From a virus (Monodnaviria; Loebvirae; Hofneiviricota; Faserviricetes; Tubulavirales; Inoviridae): a stretch of 8,834 bases of DNA. The translations under genes and the position numbers were made by a program. Within the stretch, counting starts at the first letter, position 1. Each line of letters begins with the position of its first letter. The stretch lies in IMG/VR virus record IMGVR_UViG_2531839441_000001; one strand, given 5' to 3'. This document shows, one piece after another, positions 1 through 8,834 of this stretch. The notes beneath the pieces were generated by a model. The model ran no database searches. It was not told the DNA's origin and saw only the letters and a list, made by a program, of their open reading frames with translations.

Positions 1-252
1 ATGCCAAGCCACAGCCAGATGATGCGGTGGCAGTGGGAGCACATTGATTTTCGCGAAGGTATTGCCTGGATGTCATGGCTGTGGTGCGCAGAGGCCGGAC
101 GCCGTGCCGTCGAGATAATCGACGAGGTTGATATAAACGCAGAGGACGGGCCGAAGCAGTTACGCAAAGCAGAAGCAAAGGCAAAGGCACTACTCGCAGC
201 CGCCAAGCTGAATAGTTTAAAACATTCGCCATTTGGAGATGACAAGCAATGA
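1..252 (+). CDS. hypothetical protein, probably C-terminal part of a longer ORF entering from the left edge
   Basis: Frame is open from position 1 to TGA at 250-252; the ATG at position 1 may be an internal codon. Stop overlaps the ATG of the next ORF (ATGA at 249-252). No recognisable motif; C-terminus is Ala/Lys-rich and helical-looking (KAEAKAKALLAAAKL). Confidence 0.35.
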   Translation: MPSHSQMMRWQWEHIDFREGIAWMSWLWCAEAGRRAVEIIDEVDINAEDGPKQLRKAEAKAKALLAAAKLNSLKHSPFGDDKQ

Positions 253-842
253 CACTGATCCGCACAGAAACCAAAGACAGCAAACGGGCCGCAGACCCAT
301 TACACGACCTGCGTAGCAAGCCGTTTTCTGAGTGGGGCGAAGATGAAATCAGGCGTTTTGATCTGACTGACGCGCTCCTTGAGTTTGTCTATACAGACAC
401 ATCCAGCCCGTTCGGTATCGGCATGACCTTCGATTATACGGAGTGTTGGGAGTTAGGTATCCGTGACGATTGCCTGGTAATAACGCGCGTTAAACCAGTG
501 CATCCAGAGTATGCGAAACACTGGAATATGCGCGGGGTGATGACTGATGCCACCCGCTTCCACGCAGACAAGTGGGTTGGATACAGTAAGGTTCTTGCCT
601 GGGTGAGCTTATCGCACAAAGACACTTTCGCGGGTTCAAAACGGTTCCAATACTTCCAGACGATGTATGAACTTGAACGCCAGTTTAATTCAACTCTTCC
701 GGTTGGCGGCCTTCCTTTCGTTGATACTGAGCGATCTGGCAAGCTGTTCCAGCGTGATGACTTTTCTGAGGATAGTCACGCAAACGATCCGAAGTTGGTT
801 AATGATGACTACGTGCCAGCGCCACCGGAGCAAGTCGATTAA
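249..842 (+). CDS. hypothetical protein, 197 aa, unknown function
   Basis: Uninterrupted ORF with ATG overlapping the upstream stop (translational coupling); no signal peptide or hydrophobic segment; acidic C-terminus (DDFSEDSHANDPKLVNDDY). No family recognised by eye. Confidence 0.5.
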   Translation: MTLIRTETKDSKRAADPLHDLRSKPFSEWGEDEIRRFDLTDALLEFVYTDTSSPFGIGMTFDYTECWELGIRDDCLVITRVKPVHPEYAKHWNMRGVMTDATRFHADKWVGYSKVLAWVSLSHKDTFAGSKRFQYFQTMYELERQFNSTLPVGGLPFVDTERSGKLFQRDDFSEDSHANDPKLVNDDYVPAPPEQVD

Positions 843-894: not shown

Positions 895-990
895 AGTGCG
901 CATTAGATATATGCCGTTATGTTGAATCGGGTGCGGCGAAAATGGCGAGCGCCGCGCCCGATTTACACATAACGCTCTTGTGCGCATTGT
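895..990. other. dif-like forked stem-loop A, candidate XerCD attP-type site
   Basis: AGTGCGCATTA (895-905; E. coli dif XerC arm is GGTGCGCATAA) + 11 nt + TTATGTTGAAT (917-927; dif XerD arm is TTATGTTAAAT). 14-bp GC-rich stem 925-938 pairs with 950-963 around an 11-nt loop (939-949); 7-bp stem GTTATGT (916-922) with ACATAAC (967-973); outer stem through the palindromic TGCGCA core (897-902 with 981-986); asymmetric internal loop of about 10 nt versus 5 nt. Confidence 0.5.
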
Positions 991-1040
991 CAGGAGTCAT
1001 TTGTCTCACACGGACACCTTAATTCAGCTACCACAATGCC

Positions 1041-1135
1041 AGTGCGCATAATGTGTTACACGTTATGTTGAAAAGGCCGCTGCGATACTCTCCACCGCAG
1101 CGGCCTTTTTACACATAACGTCATTGTGCGCACTG
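1041..1135. other. dif-like forked stem-loop B, paralog of A, candidate XerCD attP-type site
   Basis: AGTGCGCATAA (1041-1051, 10/11 to dif XerC arm) + 10-11 nt + TTATGTTGAAA (1063-1073). Perfect 14-bp stem 1071-1084 with 1096-1109 and 11-nt loop 1085-1095; 7-bp stem GTTATGT (1062-1068) with ACATAAC (1113-1119); 11-bp outer stem 1041-1051 with 1124-1134 (one G-T). Same architecture as A, with different but still complementary distal-stem sequence (covariation). Confidence 0.5.
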
Positions 1136-1356
1136 GCCCTCAGTTCTCCGGTCTGAATTCGTCGCCCTGATAAGCAGGTTTTAGCAATGGGAAAACAGGT
1201 GGCTCCTGTTATCGATGCAGAATGTCCTGACCTCAGCCGTACCGCACCGCAGCGAGTGGAGGCGGAGAAGGACGACGGAGGAGGACGCCGACAACGACAG
1301 GAGCGAGGGCGGTGCGGCTGTTGTTCAAATTTGTTATATCGTAGCTTGCTATTTTA

Positions 1357-1722
1357 TTATGGCCTGTAATAGATATTTAAACTTTTAAATTCTTTGTATT
1401 GCTCCTTCGTTGGCGCATCTACTTTTATATTTTTCGTTGCCTTTACAACCATATTGCATAGCTCATAATCACCTTTTATATTTCGAATCCCGTTCATTTT
1501 TCCATCCATTTCTAAATTTATTTTGAATTCACATATTCTACCTTTGTATCGTTTTGTGTTTTCTTTTTCTATGTGCTTTTGTATTTCTTTTCTCACCTTC
1601 CCCAGATATTGGTCTTTTTTGCAGTTGTTATTATTGCATCTGTATGTTTCATAATTACTTTTTGCATTCGCGCTTAGTGTCACACCTATTAGCATCAATG
1701 CTATTTTCATTTTTTTCTTCAT
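1357..1722 (-). CDS. secreted TolA C-terminal domain (domain III)-like protein, 121 aa
   Basis: Minus-strand ORF with RBS GAGGG about 6 nt upstream of ATG. N-terminal signal peptide MKKKMKIALMLIGVTLSANA. Remainder (YLGKVRKEIQKHIEK...YKGRICEFKINLEMDGKMNGIRNIKGDYELCNMVVKATKNIKVDAPTKEQYKEFKSLNIYYRP) aligns by eye with the remembered E. coli TolA C-terminus (YAGQIKSAIESKF...YAGKTCTLRIKLAPDGMLLDIKPEGGDPALCQAALAAAKLAKIPKPPSQAVYEVFKNAPLDFKP), including both Cys and the terminal [FY]-[KR]-P. Lies in the AT-rich cassette. Confidence 0.65.
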   Translation of the reverse strand: MKKKMKIALMLIGVTLSANAKSNYETYRCNNNNCKKDQYLGKVRKEIQKHIEKENTKRYKGRICEFKINLEMDGKMNGIRNIKGDYELCNMVVKATKNIKVDAPTKEQYKEFKSLNIYYRP

Positions 1723-1784
1723 GTACCCTCATTGTTTTTGAAGCATTATTTTTATTTAACAATCTTCATATTGTCTGATGATTA

Positions 1785-1973
1785 TTATTTTTTTTGTGTG
1801 ATTTCATTCTTTGAAATCATATCTTGCTTTGCATCGTTCAAATATTGGTCTATCAGATAATTTACAATCTCTGACCATTTTGTGACTTTTCCTGTTTTTG
1901 CTGTGATGTCTACAGCTGCTCGTTCTATTCTCAGGTATCTCTCGTTGCTTATACCAATACTTTTTCTGCTCAT
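1785..1973 (-). CDS. small DNA-binding regulator, ribbon-helix-helix-like (candidate phage repressor)
   Basis: 62-aa minus-strand ORF with RBS AGAGGGTG 4 nt before ATG. N-terminal beta-strand-like basic segment (RKSIGIS) followed by two predicted helices (NERYLRIERAAVDI; WSEIVNYLIDQYL), typical of Arc/CopG-type RHH proteins. Divergent from the replication gene, like rstR/rstA in CTXphi. Confidence 0.55.
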   Translation of the reverse strand: MSRKSIGISNERYLRIERAAVDITAKTGKVTKWSEIVNYLIDQYLNDAKQDMISKNEITQKK

Positions 1974-4110
<2,137 letters not shown>

Positions 4111-4156: not shown

Positions 4157-4582
4157 ATGAGTGAGTTTTACGATAGTTTTCCGTTTCCTTCCCCTGATGG
4201 TTTTGCTTCAGGCATGACAATGGCGGGATATTTTATTCATGTGGCCGTTACAAATGATGATGAGTTAAAGCCCGGCAGTTCTCATTATGACCCTGAGGCA
4301 AAACCCAAATATGCCATTGTTATTGCCTATCCGTATGAGGACCGGAAATTAAAAGTTCGTCGTGAGGAGCATGAAAGATTTTCCTGTACTGAGGAGGACT
4401 TTAAATTCCTTAATTCGTGCTCTGACCTGCGGGGTAAACCTGTTTATCTCACGGTGGATGTTAATTCATGGTCAACCGGTTCAGAACGTCATGGTGTCTG
4501 GTATCGTTTTATTTCCGGTTCCATGAAACGTTTTGATGGTAAACCTGTTGGTCCTTTACTTCCTGGAAAGGAGAAACTGTAA
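4157..4582 (+). CDS. hypothetical protein, positional analog of the ssDNA-binding protein (gV / RstB)
   Basis: 141-aa ORF directly after rep with RBS GAGGAG 8 nt upstream of ATG; no hydrophobic segment. No sequence similarity to M13 gV recognised by eye, so the function is inferred from gene order only. Confidence 0.55.
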   Translation: MSEFYDSFPFPSPDGFASGMTMAGYFIHVAVTNDDELKPGSSHYDPEAKPKYAIVIAYPYEDRKLKVRREEHERFSCTEEDFKFLNSCSDLRGKPVYLTVDVNSWSTGSERHGVWYRFISGSMKRFDGKPVGPLLPGKEKL

Positions 4583-4605
4583 TTATCATTCGCCTTAATG
4601 AGATT

Positions 4606-4707
4606 ATGTCAGTAGCGGAATTTTTTATTCTTATTCTCTTTGGCGCTGTGCCAGTGCTGATATTTTCACTGGCTTTTATTGGTGGAGTCATTACGGGAAG
4701 GCGTTAA
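4606..4707 (+). CDS. 33-aa hydrophobic peptide, pVII-like minor coat protein candidate
   Basis: ATG 4606 to TAA 4705-4707: MSVAEFFILILFGAVPVLIFSLAFIGGVITGRR. Single membrane helix with basic C-terminus, same length as M13 pVII (33 aa, ends GGQR), in the gVII/gIX position between gV and gVIII. Below the 60-aa cutoff of the ORF track. Confidence 0.45.
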   Translation: MSVAEFFILILFGAVPVLIFSLAFIGGVITGRR

Positions 4708-4709
4708 TA

Positions 4710-4868
4710 ATGCTTTCTGAGGCAAATTTTCTTGTGACAATATCCGGCGTGGGTTCTTATCCTCCGCTTGTTGCACTTTTTGGTATATGGGCCATCAGCT
4801 GGCTTGCCGGTTTTGGCTTCGGGTATGTGTTTTCCCTGACAAAAACACTTTTTTCATCTTTTTTGTAA
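4710..4868 (+). CDS. 52-aa hydrophobic peptide, pIX-like minor coat protein candidate
   Basis: ATG 4710 lies 2 nt after the stop of the 33-aa ORF (TAATAATG): MLSEANFLVTISGVGSYPPLVALFGIWAISWLAGFGFGYVFSLTKTLFSSFL, ending TAA 4866-4868 just before the coat-gene RBS. Hydrophobic and small, as expected for pIX. Confidence 0.35.
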   Translation: MLSEANFLVTISGVGSYPPLVALFGIWAISWLAGFGFGYVFSLTKTLFSSFL

Positions 4869-4888
4869 TAATACAGGAGTTATATATT

Positions 4889-5164
4889 ATGTCTGTTCGT
4901 GAAAAAGCAGTTACGTTCGTAAAAAAACCTCTGGTCATTGCATCTTCCCTGATGCTGGCGTCCGGTCCTGTTCTGGCTGATGATGTGAGTTATACCCCCG
5001 GACAGGCAGTTATCAGTAAAGCGATGATTGACCCGGTGGTGAACTCCATTTTGTCAACGCTGGGCGTGGTGGGAACCGCAGCATTTCTTTTACTGGGCTT
5101 TGGCGTTTCTTTAATGATTGGTTTCCGCGTAGTGAAATCCCTCTTCAGAATGGCATCTTCCTGA
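4889..5164 (+). CDS. major coat protein precursor (pVIII-like), 91 aa
   Basis: RBS AGGAG (4875-4879) then ATG 4889. Signal peptide MSVREKAVTFVKKPLVIASSLMLASGPVLA; mature part has an acidic N-terminus (DDVSY), a hydrophobic core (GVVGTAAFLLLGFGVSLMIGF) and a basic C-terminus (RVVKSLFR), the canonical inovirus major-coat architecture. The track ORF 4787-5164 is an upstream extension of this frame. Confidence 0.8.
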   Translation: MSVREKAVTFVKKPLVIASSLMLASGPVLADDVSYTPGQAVISKAMIDPVVNSILSTLGVVGTAAFLLLGFGVSLMIGFRVVKSLFRMASS

Positions 5165-5185
5165 TGCTGTTTAATTAATAATACA

Positions 5186-5206
5186 GGGGCCGTGCGCCCC
5201 TTTTTT
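5186..5206 (+). terminator. rho-independent terminator after the coat gene
   Basis: GGGGC (5186-5190), loop CGTGC, GCCCC (5196-5200), followed by TTTTTT (5201-5206). Same position as the strong terminator between gVIII and gIII in Ff phages. Confidence 0.6.
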
Positions 5207-5219
5207 ATCAGAGGTCATT

Positions 5220-6254
5220 ATGCGGCTGTTATTTCTGCTTTTATTTCTTCCGTTCTTTTCATCTGCTGAATCATTCACAAGAACATTTGTGCCTTTTAAA
5301 TTAACTGAAGCTGATGAGGTCTGTATTTCCCGCCCGGCGCTGCAGGGGGTCACACTTTCCGGAGCGTTTCGCAGTGATAATACATGGTATGCCGTTCTGG
5401 ATGGCTGTATTTATAGGGCGACAGGTGTGATTGTTGGCAGTGAAACAGGTGATGTCGCCGCTGACTGGATCCCTGTGGCAGCTTATGAGCCTTCGGATGG
5501 TGATGGCGGGGACGGGGATAACAGCGGCGGCAACGGAGACAACAGTTCCGGTGATGATAATGATAACGCTGTATCCGGTCAGGTTTCTGCTGTCTATTTG
5601 CTTGAACTTGCGGATACACTGAGGAGACAGGAGTGTGATAATAATCCGCTGTTAATCTGTGGTTCGTTTTCAGGATATTATCCCCCGCGGAAAACTATGC
5701 CTTTATCTGAGTTGCGCGCTCACGCAAAATATTACTCCTGCACTCCCAACGGTTCCGGCTGGCAGAACCTTTATAACAGCACCTGTTATTTAAGGGAGGG
5801 TTATAAAATTGAGGACGGGAAAATTGTTCCTGACAACGGTAATGAGGAAGATAACAACGGTAGTGAAGATAATAATTCCGGCAGCGAGGGCGGTAATAAT
5901 TCCGGTGGTGGAAATACCGGGAGTGACGGCAATGATAATAACACCGGAAACGGGGATGACGGTCTTTCTGATGAGTGGGGAAGAAAAATATATTATCTGC
6001 TGAATGCCGGACTGCCTGCCATCGGAGACAAAATTGACAGCTTTCATAGCAGCTACATTGAACTTCAGAATAAAACCCTTGTTACCATGGATTATATGAC
6101 AGAAAGGCAGGTGAAATATTTACACAGCATTGATGAAAAATTTGGTGCACTGACAGAGCCGGATAAAAACTACTCTTCGTCTCAGGCGCAGTTTAACAGC
6201 ACCATGCAGGGGATTATTGAGAACGGTATAAGTTCAGTGGAGCAGGGCGTATAG
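5220..6254 (+). CDS. pIII-like adsorption/minor coat protein, 344 codons ending at an in-frame TAG
   Basis: RBS GAGG then ATG 5220; signal peptide MRLLFLLLFLPFFSSA. N1-like domain (DGCIYRATGVIVGSETGD...WIPVAAYEP; compare M13 pIII N1 EGCLWNATGVVVCTGDET...WVPIGLAIPE). Two Gly/Asp/Asn/Ser-rich linkers (about 5494-5568 and 5836-5965) flank a Cys-containing middle domain. Frame stops at TAG 6252-6254 inside the C-terminal domain. Confidence 0.85.
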   Translation: MRLLFLLLFLPFFSSAESFTRTFVPFKLTEADEVCISRPALQGVTLSGAFRSDNTWYAVLDGCIYRATGVIVGSETGDVAADWIPVAAYEPSDGDGGDGDNSGGNGDNSSGDDNDNAVSGQVSAVYLLELADTLRRQECDNNPLLICGSFSGYYPPRKTMPLSELRAHAKYYSCTPNGSGWQNLYNSTCYLREGYKIEDGKIVPDNGNEEDNNGSEDNNSGSEGGNNSGGGNTGSDGNDNNTGNGDDGLSDEWGRKIYYLLNAGLPAIGDKIDSFHSSYIELQNKTLVTMDYMTERQVKYLHSIDEKFGALTEPDKNYSSSQAQFNSTMQGIIENGISSVEQGV

Positions 6255-6293
6255 GACCGGATTCAGGAACTTATTCCCCTGATTGAAGATTAT

Positions 6294-6545
6294 GTGCCTG
6301 TGCTTAATTTTTCCGGCATTATTCCTCAGGGCTTCTTCGGCAATAACAGGGATGTCTGTGTGCCACTGGATTTAAGTTTTTCATTCCGGCCTTTCGGGGG
6401 GGAGGAAATGCCCTTTAATCTCTCCACGGAAGGTGTCTGTCGTATTTATGACGATTATCTGCGGGAGGTTATTCGCTTTTTTATTTATGTCATCACCGCA
6501 GTGTCATTAGTCATCCTGGTTGATAAATCATTATCCGGTAGGTAA
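6294..6545 (+). CDS. pIII C-terminal membrane-anchor segment, in the same frame as 5220-6254 downstream of the TAG
   Basis: Same reading frame as the pIII ORF (codons continue 6255 onward: DRIQELIPLIEDYVPVLNFSG...). Contains MPFNLSTEGVCRIYDDYLREVIRFFIYVITAVSLVILVDKS (compare M13 pIII C-terminus KPYEFSIDCDKINLFRGVFAFLLYVATFMYVFSTFANIL). Track start 6294 is a GTG, not a convincing independent start. Confidence 0.6.
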   Translation: MPVLNFSGIIPQGFFGNNRDVCVPLDLSFSFRPFGGEEMPFNLSTEGVCRIYDDYLREVIRFFIYVITAVSLVILVDKSLSGR

Positions 6546-6547
6546 AT

Positions 6548-6907
6548 ATGCCAGCTGTTTTTATGGGACTGACGGTCTTTTTTAAGGATATGATGATATT
6601 TCTGGTGCCGTTTATTTTCCGGTGCCTCCTGCGTTTTTTTCTCCTCAAGTCCGTGATTGCGCTGACCACGGTCGGGGTCTGGTATGGGTTTTACAGCGTT
6701 TTTATTTCCTTCGTGAATGAAAAGTTTTCTTCCCTGATGCTGACCTCTCCGGTATTCACGCATCCGGTCTGGATCAGCGTGTCCAGCCTGTTTCCGGATA
6801 ACCTTCCGGTCTGCCTGAATATTATTACCGGCGCATGGTCGCTGTATTTTGCCTTCCGGGTGAAGGCTTTCATTCTCGGAAAACTGACACTGGGTTTAAT
6901 GAAGTAG
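6548..6907 (+). CDS. pVI-like minor coat / membrane protein, 119 aa
   Basis: ATG 2 nt after the preceding stop; strongly hydrophobic multi-helix protein of pVI size (M13 pVI is 112 aa) in the gVI position between gIII and gI. Confidence 0.7.
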   Translation: MPAVFMGLTVFFKDMMIFLVPFIFRCLLRFFLLKSVIALTTVGVWYGFYSVFISFVNEKFSSLMLTSPVFTHPVWISVSSLFPDNLPVCLNIITGAWSLYFAFRVKAFILGKLTLGLMK

Positions 6908-6914
6908 GGGTGTT

Positions 6915-8171
6915 ATGGCTGTTTACTGGGTGACAGGAAAAATGCGCAACGGGAAGGGGCTGTTCTGCTCCATGGTGGCAAAACAGTTTTACCGTCGCGG
7001 ACACAGAATTGCGGCAAATTACCCGCTTGATACTGAAAAAATGGACCCGGCTTCATCGCATCCGGTGACCGTGCTTCCGGCCCGTCCTCGTCCTGAAGAT
7101 TTCTGGGCGCTGGGGCGTGGTTGTGATGAAAATGAGAAGGAGCGGTTTGGTGCGTTATTTCTGGATGAGGTCGGAACATGGCTTAACGGCACATCTTCCG
7201 GCCGGGAATACCTGGAATATTACAAATGGTTTGTACAGTCCGGGAAACTGGGCTGGGATGTTTATATTCAGGTGCAGGATGAATCCGCCGTTGACAGCAA
7301 AATATTTAAATCCACGGGTGAGCTGATTGTCCGCTGCCGTCGTCTTGATCGTATTCGTGTCCCGGTCGTGTCCGATATTCTGGAACTCTGCATGCCGGAT
7401 AAGTTTGGCGATACGGGCAGCCGGAAAGGGCTTCTGCCGCACCTGATTTCGGCAAAAATTTATATCGGTGTTCCCCGGGCGAATTCCCGTCCCAATGAAT
7501 CCCGCGTTTTTTATGCGCCGTCCTTTTACGGTATCCATCCGACGAACATGGTATTTGATGACGGAATGGAACTGCTCGGAACGGGTGAGCATCAGCGGGT
7601 CTGTGATATGCGCGCCATGTATTCCCTGTTGCCCGGCAGAACCCTCCGGCAGTTCCGGCGGCTGCGTGAGCGGCAGGAGAAAGGGGATTTGCAGACCTTC
7701 ACGGCAGAGGAACGAAAGGAGCAGCAACAGGCGCGCCGTAAAAAACTGTTGTCCGTTGTGGTGGGTGGCCTGTTTTTCTGGTTCTGGGGACGTCTTGTGC
7801 TGGATTTTTTCTCCGGCACACCTGATGAGCCGGCTGCAACGGTCATGCAGGCACCACCACAGGTAATCACCACTGAAAAAGCGCCGCCTGTACCACAGGT
7901 CGCATCTCCGGCAGAACTGCCGCTTTCCCGTGTCTGGCGGCTTTCCGGTCATATGCGTGACGGCAACAGGCAGGGGGTTTTTATTCTGCGCAGTAACAGC
8001 AACGTCACGCGGCTTGTGCGCAGTGAACTGCCGTATGAAGGGCTGCTTACTGTACTGGAACTGGATGGCGAACACATCACGTTTCACAGCGGGTCAGGCA
8101 GTGAACCTTCCCCGTCGCGTTCGTCCGGCAGCGGTGCCGGGGGGATGTCCGTTTCTCTCACCACACCATAG
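6915..8171 (+). CDS. pI / Zot-family phage assembly NTPase, 418 aa
   Basis: N-terminus MAVYWVTGKMRNGKGLFCSMV (M13 pI: MAVYFVTGKLGSGKTLVSV); LFLDEVGTWLNG (M13 LVLDECGTWFNT); KLGWDVYIQVQDESAVDSK...RCRRLDRIRVPVV (M13 KLGWDIIFLVQDLSIVDKQ...YCRRLDRITLPFV); one transmembrane segment LLSVVVGGLFFWFWGRLVLDFF, then a Pro- and Ser/Gly-rich periplasmic tail. Confidence 0.9.
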   Translation: MAVYWVTGKMRNGKGLFCSMVAKQFYRRGHRIAANYPLDTEKMDPASSHPVTVLPARPRPEDFWALGRGCDENEKERFGALFLDEVGTWLNGTSSGREYLEYYKWFVQSGKLGWDVYIQVQDESAVDSKIFKSTGELIVRCRRLDRIRVPVVSDILELCMPDKFGDTGSRKGLLPHLISAKIYIGVPRANSRPNESRVFYAPSFYGIHPTNMVFDDGMELLGTGEHQRVCDMRAMYSLLPGRTLRQFRRLRERQEKGDLQTFTAEERKEQQQARRKKLLSVVVGGLFFWFWGRLVLDFFSGTPDEPAATVMQAPPQVITTEKAPPVPQVASPAELPLSRVWRLSGHMRDGNRQGVFILRSNSNVTRLVRSELPYEGLLTVLELDGEHITFHSGSGSEPSPSRSSGSGAGGMSVSLTTP

Positions 8172-8180
8172 GGACAGAAT

Positions 8181-8834
<654 letters not shown>

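Follow-up and report, generated by a model that had tools for sequence, protein, structure and literature searches.

Phages that exploit the Xer system are thought to be tied to dif, a handful of bases next to the point of XerC cleavage determining which targets they can use, a rule that comes from variants of the cholera toxin phage. In CTXphi, the two attachment sites attP1 and attP2 have centres of 12 nt and 5-7 nt, respectively, and the bases beside the XerC cut must, according to the model, pair after the exchange (PMC4246890). Ypf and CUS-1 are listed as related members of the CTX class (PMC4246890), a CTX-type classification that is already published (PMC4246890, PMC3089051, PMC4266046), and for YpfPhi and CUS-1 inverted pairs of XerC/XerD sites have been described, dif being intact on the 3' side (PMC4266046). 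A Ypf-like prophage located away from dif has also been reported, the mechanism not being given (PMC7307601). Here, we analyzed an 8,834-nt stretch of DNA assigned to the Inoviridae (IMG/VR record IMGVR_UViG_2531839441_000001; hereafter “the window”), which from position 895 onward is a filamentous prophage of Escherichia coli and which contains, at the start of this prophage, two adjacent forked hairpins, A and B. Most likely, both hairpins are attachment sites of the CTX type that belong to this prophage, whose replication initiator (Rep) is of the Phage_GPA type, the exchange having taken place through A into a dif-like site of a CPZ-55-family prophage, with B carried in intact. The hairpin type itself is known, being of the CTX/Ypf/CUS-1 kind; new are the presence of two neighbouring hairpins that differ in their centre triplets and the integration outside dif through the additional hairpin, A. 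In the papers searched, no description of a second hairpin or of off-dif integration by a hairpin route was found.

The initial annotation of this stretch, made from its letters alone, had described forked hairpins at 895-990 and 1041-1135; both are present, and their limits have been refined to those given in Table 1. A and B form a 95-nt direct repeat of 72% identity, with a start-to-start distance of 146 nt, and the common architecture noticed at that stage was found in both copies, i.e., an outer stem through GTGCGCA, a 7-bp stem (GTTATGT/ACATAAC), a 2x3 internal loop, a 14-bp distal stem and an 11-nt terminal loop. The stem of B runs on to 1038/1137. When positions 880-1150 were folded as single-stranded DNA (ssDNA), the structures were strongly favored, with -78 kcal/mol vs. 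-37.7 +/- 3.4 kcal/mol for shuffled sequences (z -11.9; 0/200), and the minimum-energy structure consists of two separate hairpins. Taken alone, hairpin A reached -30.7 kcal/mol (z -5.9) and hairpin B -37.7 kcal/mol (z -10.8). The asymmetric internal loop, first put at about 10 vs. 4-5 nt, is indeed asymmetric, its sizes being 11 and 5 nt when the hairpins are parsed as Xer sites; in the minimum-energy fold of B it shrinks to a 6-nt bulge on one strand. A single large hairpin, in which A would pair with the 3' arm of B, was considered and rejected, as the minimum-energy fold holds A and B apart.

The 14-bp distal stems differ in sequence between A and B, and complementarity amounts to 100% in B and 93% in A (one G.T). 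To assess covariation, 16 different hairpins of types A and B, taken from E. coli genomes and from viral contigs, were compared on a structure of 32 pairs. In this set, 98.8% of the cells were paired, vs. 92.2% in shuffles and 25-55% when the partners were slid. Both partners had changed at eight pairs, of which the distal stem holds five and the XerC-arm stem three. The compensatory changes from which structural selection had been deduced are real, with the restriction that those of the distal stem represent few independent events, because all of them follow the A-versus-B split. The XerC-arm stem also shows compensated changes inside each type, as illustrated among A variants by AGTGCGTATAA pairing with TTGTACGCACT. 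A search of positions 700-2200 against Rfam returned nothing credible, the best match being a plant miRNA model at 27 bits vs. a 140-bit threshold. A scan for consensus promoters and terminators called neither hairpin, since the 11-nt loops exceed its limit. The distal stem of hairpin B is bordered by AAAA and TTTTT, and a second function as a two-way terminator is possible.

Each hairpin can be read as two inverted sites composed of an XerC arm, a centre and an XerD arm, with centres that measure 11 nt in the top-strand site and 5 nt in the bottom-strand one. Compared with the host dif, which reads GGTGCGCATAA TGTATA TTATGTTAAAT as seen in UTI89, the arms show matches at 8-10 of 11 positions each. 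The top-strand site of A reads AGTGCGCATAA GA(T/C)ATATGCCG TTATGTTGAAT and its bottom-strand site AATGCGCACAA GAGCG TTATGTGTAAA, while the corresponding sites of B are AGTGCGCATAA TGTGTTACACG TTATGTTGAAA and AGTGCGCACAA TGACG TTATGTGTAAA. By direct reading, the first centre triplet of B agrees with the TGT of dif at 3/3 positions on the top strand and at 2/3 on the bottom strand (TGA), vs. 1/3 only for A. The pattern of a VGJ-type duplex attP, a single site of 28-29 bp having a 6-7-bp centre and a usable XerD arm, was not found: in duplex form the top centres are 11 bp long and, if a centre of 6 bp is assumed, the 11 bp that follow it (TGCCGTTATGT or ACACGTTATGT) are a poor match to the XerD arm. 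In TLC-type elements, XerD exchanges first, the XerD arm is degenerate and XafT acts as activator; with regard to this type, positions 4-6 of the A centre (ATA) are those of dif, and no DUF3653/XafT-like domain was detected among the small open reading frames (ORFs) of the window. The proposal that these hairpins are CTX-type single-stranded attP sites is supported by every feature that could be tested in silico.

By sequence comparison, hairpin A is the left end of the prophage, a hybrid attL, and the target is a dif-like site inside the CPZ-55-family prophage, not the chromosomal dif. In E. coli TOK-001, the invaded element is uninterrupted and reads ...ATATCCAT AGTGCGCATTA GATTCA TTACGTTAAAA ACGACATGG...; each arm of this target matches dif at 9/11 positions, and its centre begins with GAT as that of A does (3/3 for the top strand of A and 2/3, GAG, for the bottom strand, by direct reading). 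Positions 1-908 of the window are 99.9% identical to TOK-001, the agreement extending through AGTGCGCATTAGAT (up to 908), after which the window goes on with ATATGCCGTTATG. From the phage side, the window follows the native phage module of metagenome contig L094 from 905 (AGAT onward); this contig, 99.1% identical to window 895-1327, has its own upstream flank and the native arm AGTGCGCATAA. The T at 904 comes from the target, the phage-native arm having A there. Because T904 (target) and the bases from 909 onward (phage) are the sole informative ones, the crossover lies within 904-909, an interval which contains the predicted XerC cut between 905 and 906. T904 creates a T.T mismatch, which costs 2.2 kcal/mol relative to the native A; in all 16 variants taken together, a single further cell of the XerC-arm helix fails to pair. 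The same insertion was found in at least 10 draft assemblies, apparently of one clone, and their agreement argues against a misassembly. The left junction lies within hairpin A itself. The initial reading as CTX-type sites is supported, with the correction that the target was the CPZ-55-family site and not the host dif. Of the three origins that had been suggested for the pair, the one that correctly describes the window is a hybrid attL beside an attP, A bearing the arm of the target and B a native arm.

Other variants of the element inserted at eut carry AGTGCGCATAA CGTACA TTACGTTAAAA at the same place; their right, tape-measure-side flank is homologous to that of the target element, whereas on the left neither the flank nor the gene module shows any relationship. 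The site thus coincides with a boundary between modules and, as the homology breakpoint between the eut-inserted variants falls there, it is probably a Xer site in actual use. At this position, other strains have GATACA or GATTCA with TTATGTGAAAA, and the site is absent from the CPZ-55 of K-12, to whose yffO/yffP the flank in the window is 86% identical. The 28-bp Xer-type target lies upstream of the tape-measure gene (L001:6895-6922; L012:1536; L013:1536; L096-L105:9734-9761) and corresponds to window 895-908 plus lost sequence; it may serve as a point of Xer-mediated module exchange or multimer resolution. As a 28-bp Xer-type site carried by a mobile element at a module boundary, it resembles the Xer sites of plasmids (psi of pSC101, cer of ColE1) and the pdif sites of Acinetobacter. 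The centre of psi is GATCCA, hence with a GAT start like that of the CPZ-55-family target. A scan for GAY-centred Xer sites yielded apparent GATATA-centred dif-like sites in other phyla and no site through which A could act as a dif hairpin in a different enterobacterial host.

Hairpin B belongs to a widespread family of enterobacterial inoviruses, and it is through this family that the locus resembles YpfPhi (Yersinia pestis) and CUS-1 (E. coli O18:K1:H7). In the window it carries the native arm AGTGCGCATAA, intact, and it appears to be a dif-specific attachment hairpin, complete and carried in as a spare. In UTAK-18, 16F5M1D1 and UTI89, a B-type hairpin is located directly after hipA, the host arm GGTGCGCATAA being joined to the phage centre TGT; the left junctions read GGTGCGCATAA/TGTG... 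(the slash marks the junction). The same B hairpin occurs at the chromosomal dif junctions of UTAK-18, 16F5M1D1, JNE25-001 and EC12. At the right end of the prophage or array, the phage arm is joined to the centre and XerD arm of dif, AGTGCGCATAA/TGTATA TTATGTTAAAT, after which the chromosome follows, i.e., dif is regenerated. This pair of junctions represents both products expected of a single-strand exchange on the XerC side. In UTI89, an O18:K1:H7 strain, the hairpin that follows hipA in the dif-integrated prophage is 84% identical to B, and dif is regenerated as well. A B-family hairpin abuts the hipA flank in about 197 of 5,426 complete E. coli genomes. A pattern scan of viral contigs retrieved 46 B-type copies on 41 contigs, in which the top centre begins with TGT without exception (46/46) while the later bases vary freely, as fits an unpaired bulge whose first bases need to match dif. 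A B-like remnant was also observed on IncF-type plasmids (L009:3003-3072; about 480 places on E. coli plasmids), where the distal stem and the 3' arm remain, the 5' arm is missing, and a fragment of IS200C and an STM4504-family gene adjoin; it looks like the fossil of a filamentous-phage attachment region.

From these comparisons, a mechanism modeled on CTXphi can be proposed. Each site, on the packaged (+) strand, would fold into a forked hairpin mimicking a Xer site, with an XerC-arm duplex, an 11-over-5-nt mismatched centre and an XerD-arm duplex. The folded hairpin would be bound by the host XerCD, XerC would swap one strand with the double-stranded target at the border between arm and centre, and replication would fix the insertion; the analogy with CTXphi suggests XerCD as catalyst, a single-stranded substrate and resolution by replication. 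The expected left product would consist of the target XerC arm and the rest of the hairpin, and the right one of the phage arm followed by the target centre and XerD arm. In the window, exchange via A would place the start of the prophage at its first arm and carry B along 146 nt downstream. The rightward coding strand is presumed to be the packaged (+) strand, because the direction of the Phage_GPA-type initiator sets it, and the use of this strand is consistent with the structural and replication genes and the top-strand Xer site all running along the XerC-to-XerD direction of the target. The GAT and TGT triplets may decide the target: as judged from one natural event, A would have been used rather than B because its centres start with GAT/GA like the target, those of B starting with TGT/TG like dif.

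The likeness to CTXphi thus extends to the two inverted dif-like sites with one long centre (11 nt here, 12 nt in CTX) and one short centre (5 nt here, 5-7 nt in CTX), to a left junction in which the host XerC arm is fused to the hairpin and a right one at which dif is regenerated, to tandem arrays, to the match between the first centre bases and the target, and to the absence of an integrase, no such domain being present among the phage ORFs of the window, where the phage is visible up to a cut in gene IV. On the other hand, the hairpin is about 94 nt long vs. about 150 nt in CTX, and where CTX has about 90 nt between its XerD arms, these are parted here by a tight 14-bp stem with its 11-nt loop. 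The host, E. coli, and the Phage_GPA-type Rep differ as well, and hairpins with different centre triplets are paired, one of them being used outside dif. For the CTXphi variants that differ in dif1/dif2 tropism, too, the choice of target depends on the centre bases adjoining the XerC cut, and elements such as TLCphi, by altering the dif centre, change which element can integrate next. Here, however, two apparent specificities reside in one genome rather than in separate variants, and the altered centres, GACATA and GATATA, are found at the array ends of two E. coli strains.

Several observations weigh against this account of the two hairpins or do not fit it. The left junction made by A is known from one lineage only, and it alone is visible, since the source contigs all stop at IS100 or at a deletion mediated by IS1 and the predicted right junction is unseen; searches for the latter with the truncated gene IV fusion protein, the yffP-like protein and tape-measure homologues led to contigs that end in IS100, carry the IS1 deletion or hold uninterrupted elements of another variant. 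In complete E. coli genomes, a chimeric query (hipA flank, dif arm and hairpin A) retrieved no junction of the dif arm with A, the best full-length matches being B-type junctions at about 82%. The first centre triplet of A varies among relatives (GAT, GAC, GGT), which weakens the case for a single fixed target, and a dif-like site with 18/22 arm matches is estimated to occur by chance about 0.3 times per genome. The minus strand of the hairpin region is nearly as stable (z -9.6), so that folding by itself does not single out the substrate strand. One left junction has TGTA where the native copy has TGTG. Finally, array ends in 16F5M1D1 and 700481 show the A arm followed by GACATA or GATATA and TTATGTTAAAT, not by TGTATA (L015:9464-9491; L016:12561-12588; compare L062:716-743), whereas in UTAK-18 the same flank that precedes A is followed by a TGTATA centre. 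This retention of GAC/GAT does not fit the simple scheme, because XerC-only exchange followed by replication should not keep these bases. Such ends could have come from an exchange on the XerD side (ATA being shared), from a full exchange of both strands that left the centre as a heteroduplex, or from a microhomology deletion at TATAT.

Some of these points would be accommodated if A were mainly another single-strand cis element, such as a packaging signal, a minus-strand origin or a terminator, its arms being inherited from a duplication of B and its use for attachment being a one-off illegitimate Xer event. In the Ff phages, the packaging hairpin is located immediately after gene IV, and A occupies the corresponding position. 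In integrative inoviruses of Xanthomonas, the packaging signals are short G+C-rich hairpins (bioRxiv 10.1101/2023.12.30.573655). Besides, B alone suffices in most relatives, the triplet of A is not fixed, its junction is confined to a single lineage, and G+C-rich distal stems followed by T runs resemble two-way terminators, although the terminator scan, whose limit lies below 11-nt loops, flagged neither hairpin. We nevertheless regard this explanation as unlikely. All four Xer arms and the 11/5-nt geometry are kept in A, the XerC-arm change is compensated within A variants (AGTGCGTATAA with TTGTACGCACT), the A arm is found at array ends in three strains, and the match of the A triplets to the target (3/3 and 2/3) parallels that of B to dif; moreover, attachment and cis-element roles are compatible.

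The window could also have resulted from two successive integrations, an A-type element having entered the CPZ-55 site and collapsed to 146 nt before a B-type phage integrated into the regenerated site. A and the spacer do form an exact arm-to-arm unit of 146 nt, collapsed A units (462 nt and 146 nt) are present in dif arrays, and tandem arrays of mixed elements are normal at dif. Yet the identical 146-nt unit, with the same deletion ends and joined to B, exists at 99% identity in other dif arrays and in metagenome contigs, and the collapse is therefore older than the insertion seen in the window; the regenerated centre would be GATTCA, which B does not match (TGT top, TGA bottom), and a single insertion of a circle bearing A, spacer and B is simpler. 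Such a sequence of events appears quite improbable. Even less credit, close to none, can be given to a junction formed by microhomology or homologous recombination, or to an assembly chimera. AGTGCGCAT and AGAT are common to target and phage at the junction, and the draft assembly from which the window comes holds another copy of the phage; but these shared exact runs of 9 and 4 nt are too short for assembler joins, ten assemblies agree, and the 4-nt breakpoint interval holds the XerC cut between two good, correctly oriented Xer sites. Single-strand exchange through A, with B carried along, thus remains our preferred account of the window.

The combination of A, spacer and B, a tandem at first called unusual, is not peculiar to this locus but occurs in other strains and in metagenomes. 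It is found elsewhere at 99% identity with a native arm, flanked by gene IV and the regulatory module in contigs of viral and metagenome origin, as well as in phages with differing Rep modules, and A, spacer and arm joined to dif occur at array ends. This recurrence in several contexts indicates that A-spacer-B moves as one unit and predates the insertion in the window. A is rarer than B, most relatives having B alone, and phage copies without A exist, some of them within the same assemblies; the 3' part of the spacer (about 1009-1040) is the sequence that precedes hairpin B in such copies. An A-specific 22-mer gave 0 matches in 185,579 species-representative genomes, and its three metagenome and three viral-contig matches all lie in a native phage context. 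The arm-to-arm unit formed by A and the spacer measures 184-202 nt in the EC12/700481 lineage, compared with the length given above for the window, and the dif arrays hold a second A unit, of 462 nt, in which the sequence downstream of gene IV has become fused to the 3' arm. A and the spacer look like what is left after the collapse of an independent A-type element enclosed by tandem prophages, a remnant that would then have spread into hybrid phage genomes through rolling-circle replication across array junctions. Rolling-circle replication across junctions is documented for CTXphi, as cited in PMC7307601.

Two further observations concern the surroundings of these units. In UTAK-18 (L002, 4000-25771), an 11.2-kb unit repeated at dif comprises a complete inovirus and a second module without structural genes, which contains A units, B, an ORF with a TolA domain and a Phage_GPA Rep; this unit is reminiscent of an RS1-like satellite or of a composite hybrid phage. 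Downstream of gene IV, related phages have a further hairpin (L002:11795-11875; L106:19330-19410), with a TTATGT...ACATAA stem after a reversed XerC-like arm (ATTTGCGCAC or ATTTACGCACT), upstream of a terminator-like hairpin and of the attachment region.

The window is a natural case in E. coli in which a hairpin appears to have delivered a phage into the dif-like site of another prophage. We tentatively suggest, with less confidence than for the exchange through A itself, that the two hairpins are tuned to different Xer centres, TGT for dif and GAT for the other site, allowing lysogeny either at dif or at a Xer site borne by another mobile element, here a prophage or satellite of the CPZ-55 family; in this view, an attP captured from a different lineage of integrative mobile elements exploiting Xer (IMEX) would have become the second hairpin, and the GACATA/GATATA dif centres would be part of the same interplay. 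An altered dif centre would change which hairpin can integrate next. If the triplets decide the target, one phage can hold two integration addresses, any mobile element with a Xer site offers filamentous phages a landing pad and perhaps a vehicle, and prophage finders that consider dif only would overlook such insertions.

Table 1. Positions of the attachment hairpins, their Xer-type sites and the flanking genes within the window.
Feature	Position	Strand	Remarks
Invaded CPZ-55-family prophage flank	1..842	+	Sits between eutB and eutA; not phage
yffO-like ORF	1-252		Full-length gene Sf6_terminase-like
yffP-like ORF	249-842		
XerC-binding arm of hybrid attL, AGTGCGCATTA	895..905	+	Target-derived; three-way comparison of TOK-001, window and L094
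Hairpin A	895-988	+	94 nt; distal stem 925-938/950-963; loop 939-949
A site, top strand	895-927		XerC arm 895-905; 11-nt centre GATATATGCCG 906-916; XerD arm 917-927
A site, bottom strand	962-988		XerD arm 962-972; 5-nt centre 973-977; XerC arm 978-988
Spacer between hairpins	989..1040	+	Comparison with L004, L005 and JNE25-005
Hairpin B	1041-1134	+	94 nt; distal stem 1071-1084/1096-1109; loop 1085-1095
B site, top strand	1041-1073		XerC arm 1041-1051; centre TGTGTTACACG 1052-1062; XerD arm 1063-1073
B site, bottom strand	1108-1134		XerD arm 1108-1118; centre 1119-1123; XerC arm 1124-1134
Leftward accessory/regulatory ORFs	1357..1973	-	
TolA C-terminal-domain protein, secreted	1357-1722	-	
62-aa protein	1785-1973	-	phrog_2503
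Replication initiator, Phage_GPA type (origin nicking)	2128..4110	+	PF05840 6e-48; phrog_91 4.5e-123
Phage body	4157..8474	+	141-aa protein, small coat proteins, genes III, VI-like, I and start of IV
Gene III (Phage_Coat_A)		+	TAG interruption at 6252
Gene I (Zot)	6915-8171	+	
Gene IV, start	8181-	+	Cut by IS100 at ~8475
IS100 (IS21 family), istB end	8475..8834	-	Truncates gene IV; ends source contig

The remaining features of the window are listed in Table 1. The phage body is a different inovirus from YpfPhi/CUS-1: at megablast level, the phage records of GenBank/INPHARED matched the IS100 end of the window only and none matched the phage body, while metagenome contig L094 is 93.6% identical to window 4561-8474. 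Because IS100 ends the source draft contig, the right prophage junction falls outside the window. Gene III contains an in-frame TAG (6252-6254) that leaves 344 aa and a separate 83-aa ORF, the related copy in L004 being intact with 441 aa. With gene III interrupted and gene IV truncated by IS100, virion export is impossible for this prophage. The IS-bearing phage was also found in a second context within the same assemblies, which suggests either intracellular movement or an assembly ambiguity. The TolA-domain protein, of 121 aa, has a signal-peptide-like N-terminus and matches PF06519 (4.5e-12). Since TolA is the co-receptor for many filamentous phages, this protein is a candidate decoy for superinfection exclusion. 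Just inside hairpin B, a G+C-rich segment of 115 nt (window 1213-1326; L002:4313-4425; L094) is conserved at about 99% identity across phages with different replication modules. The G+C-rich stretch 1205-1335 was considered as an origin or packaging element and rejected, its fold not exceeding shuffles (z -0.5), apart from one 12-bp stem. Between the divergent 62-aa ORF and the Rep gene, positions 2005-2095 hold a cluster of TGCA-N4-6-TGCA repeats, both direct and inverted, of operator- or iteron-like appearance.

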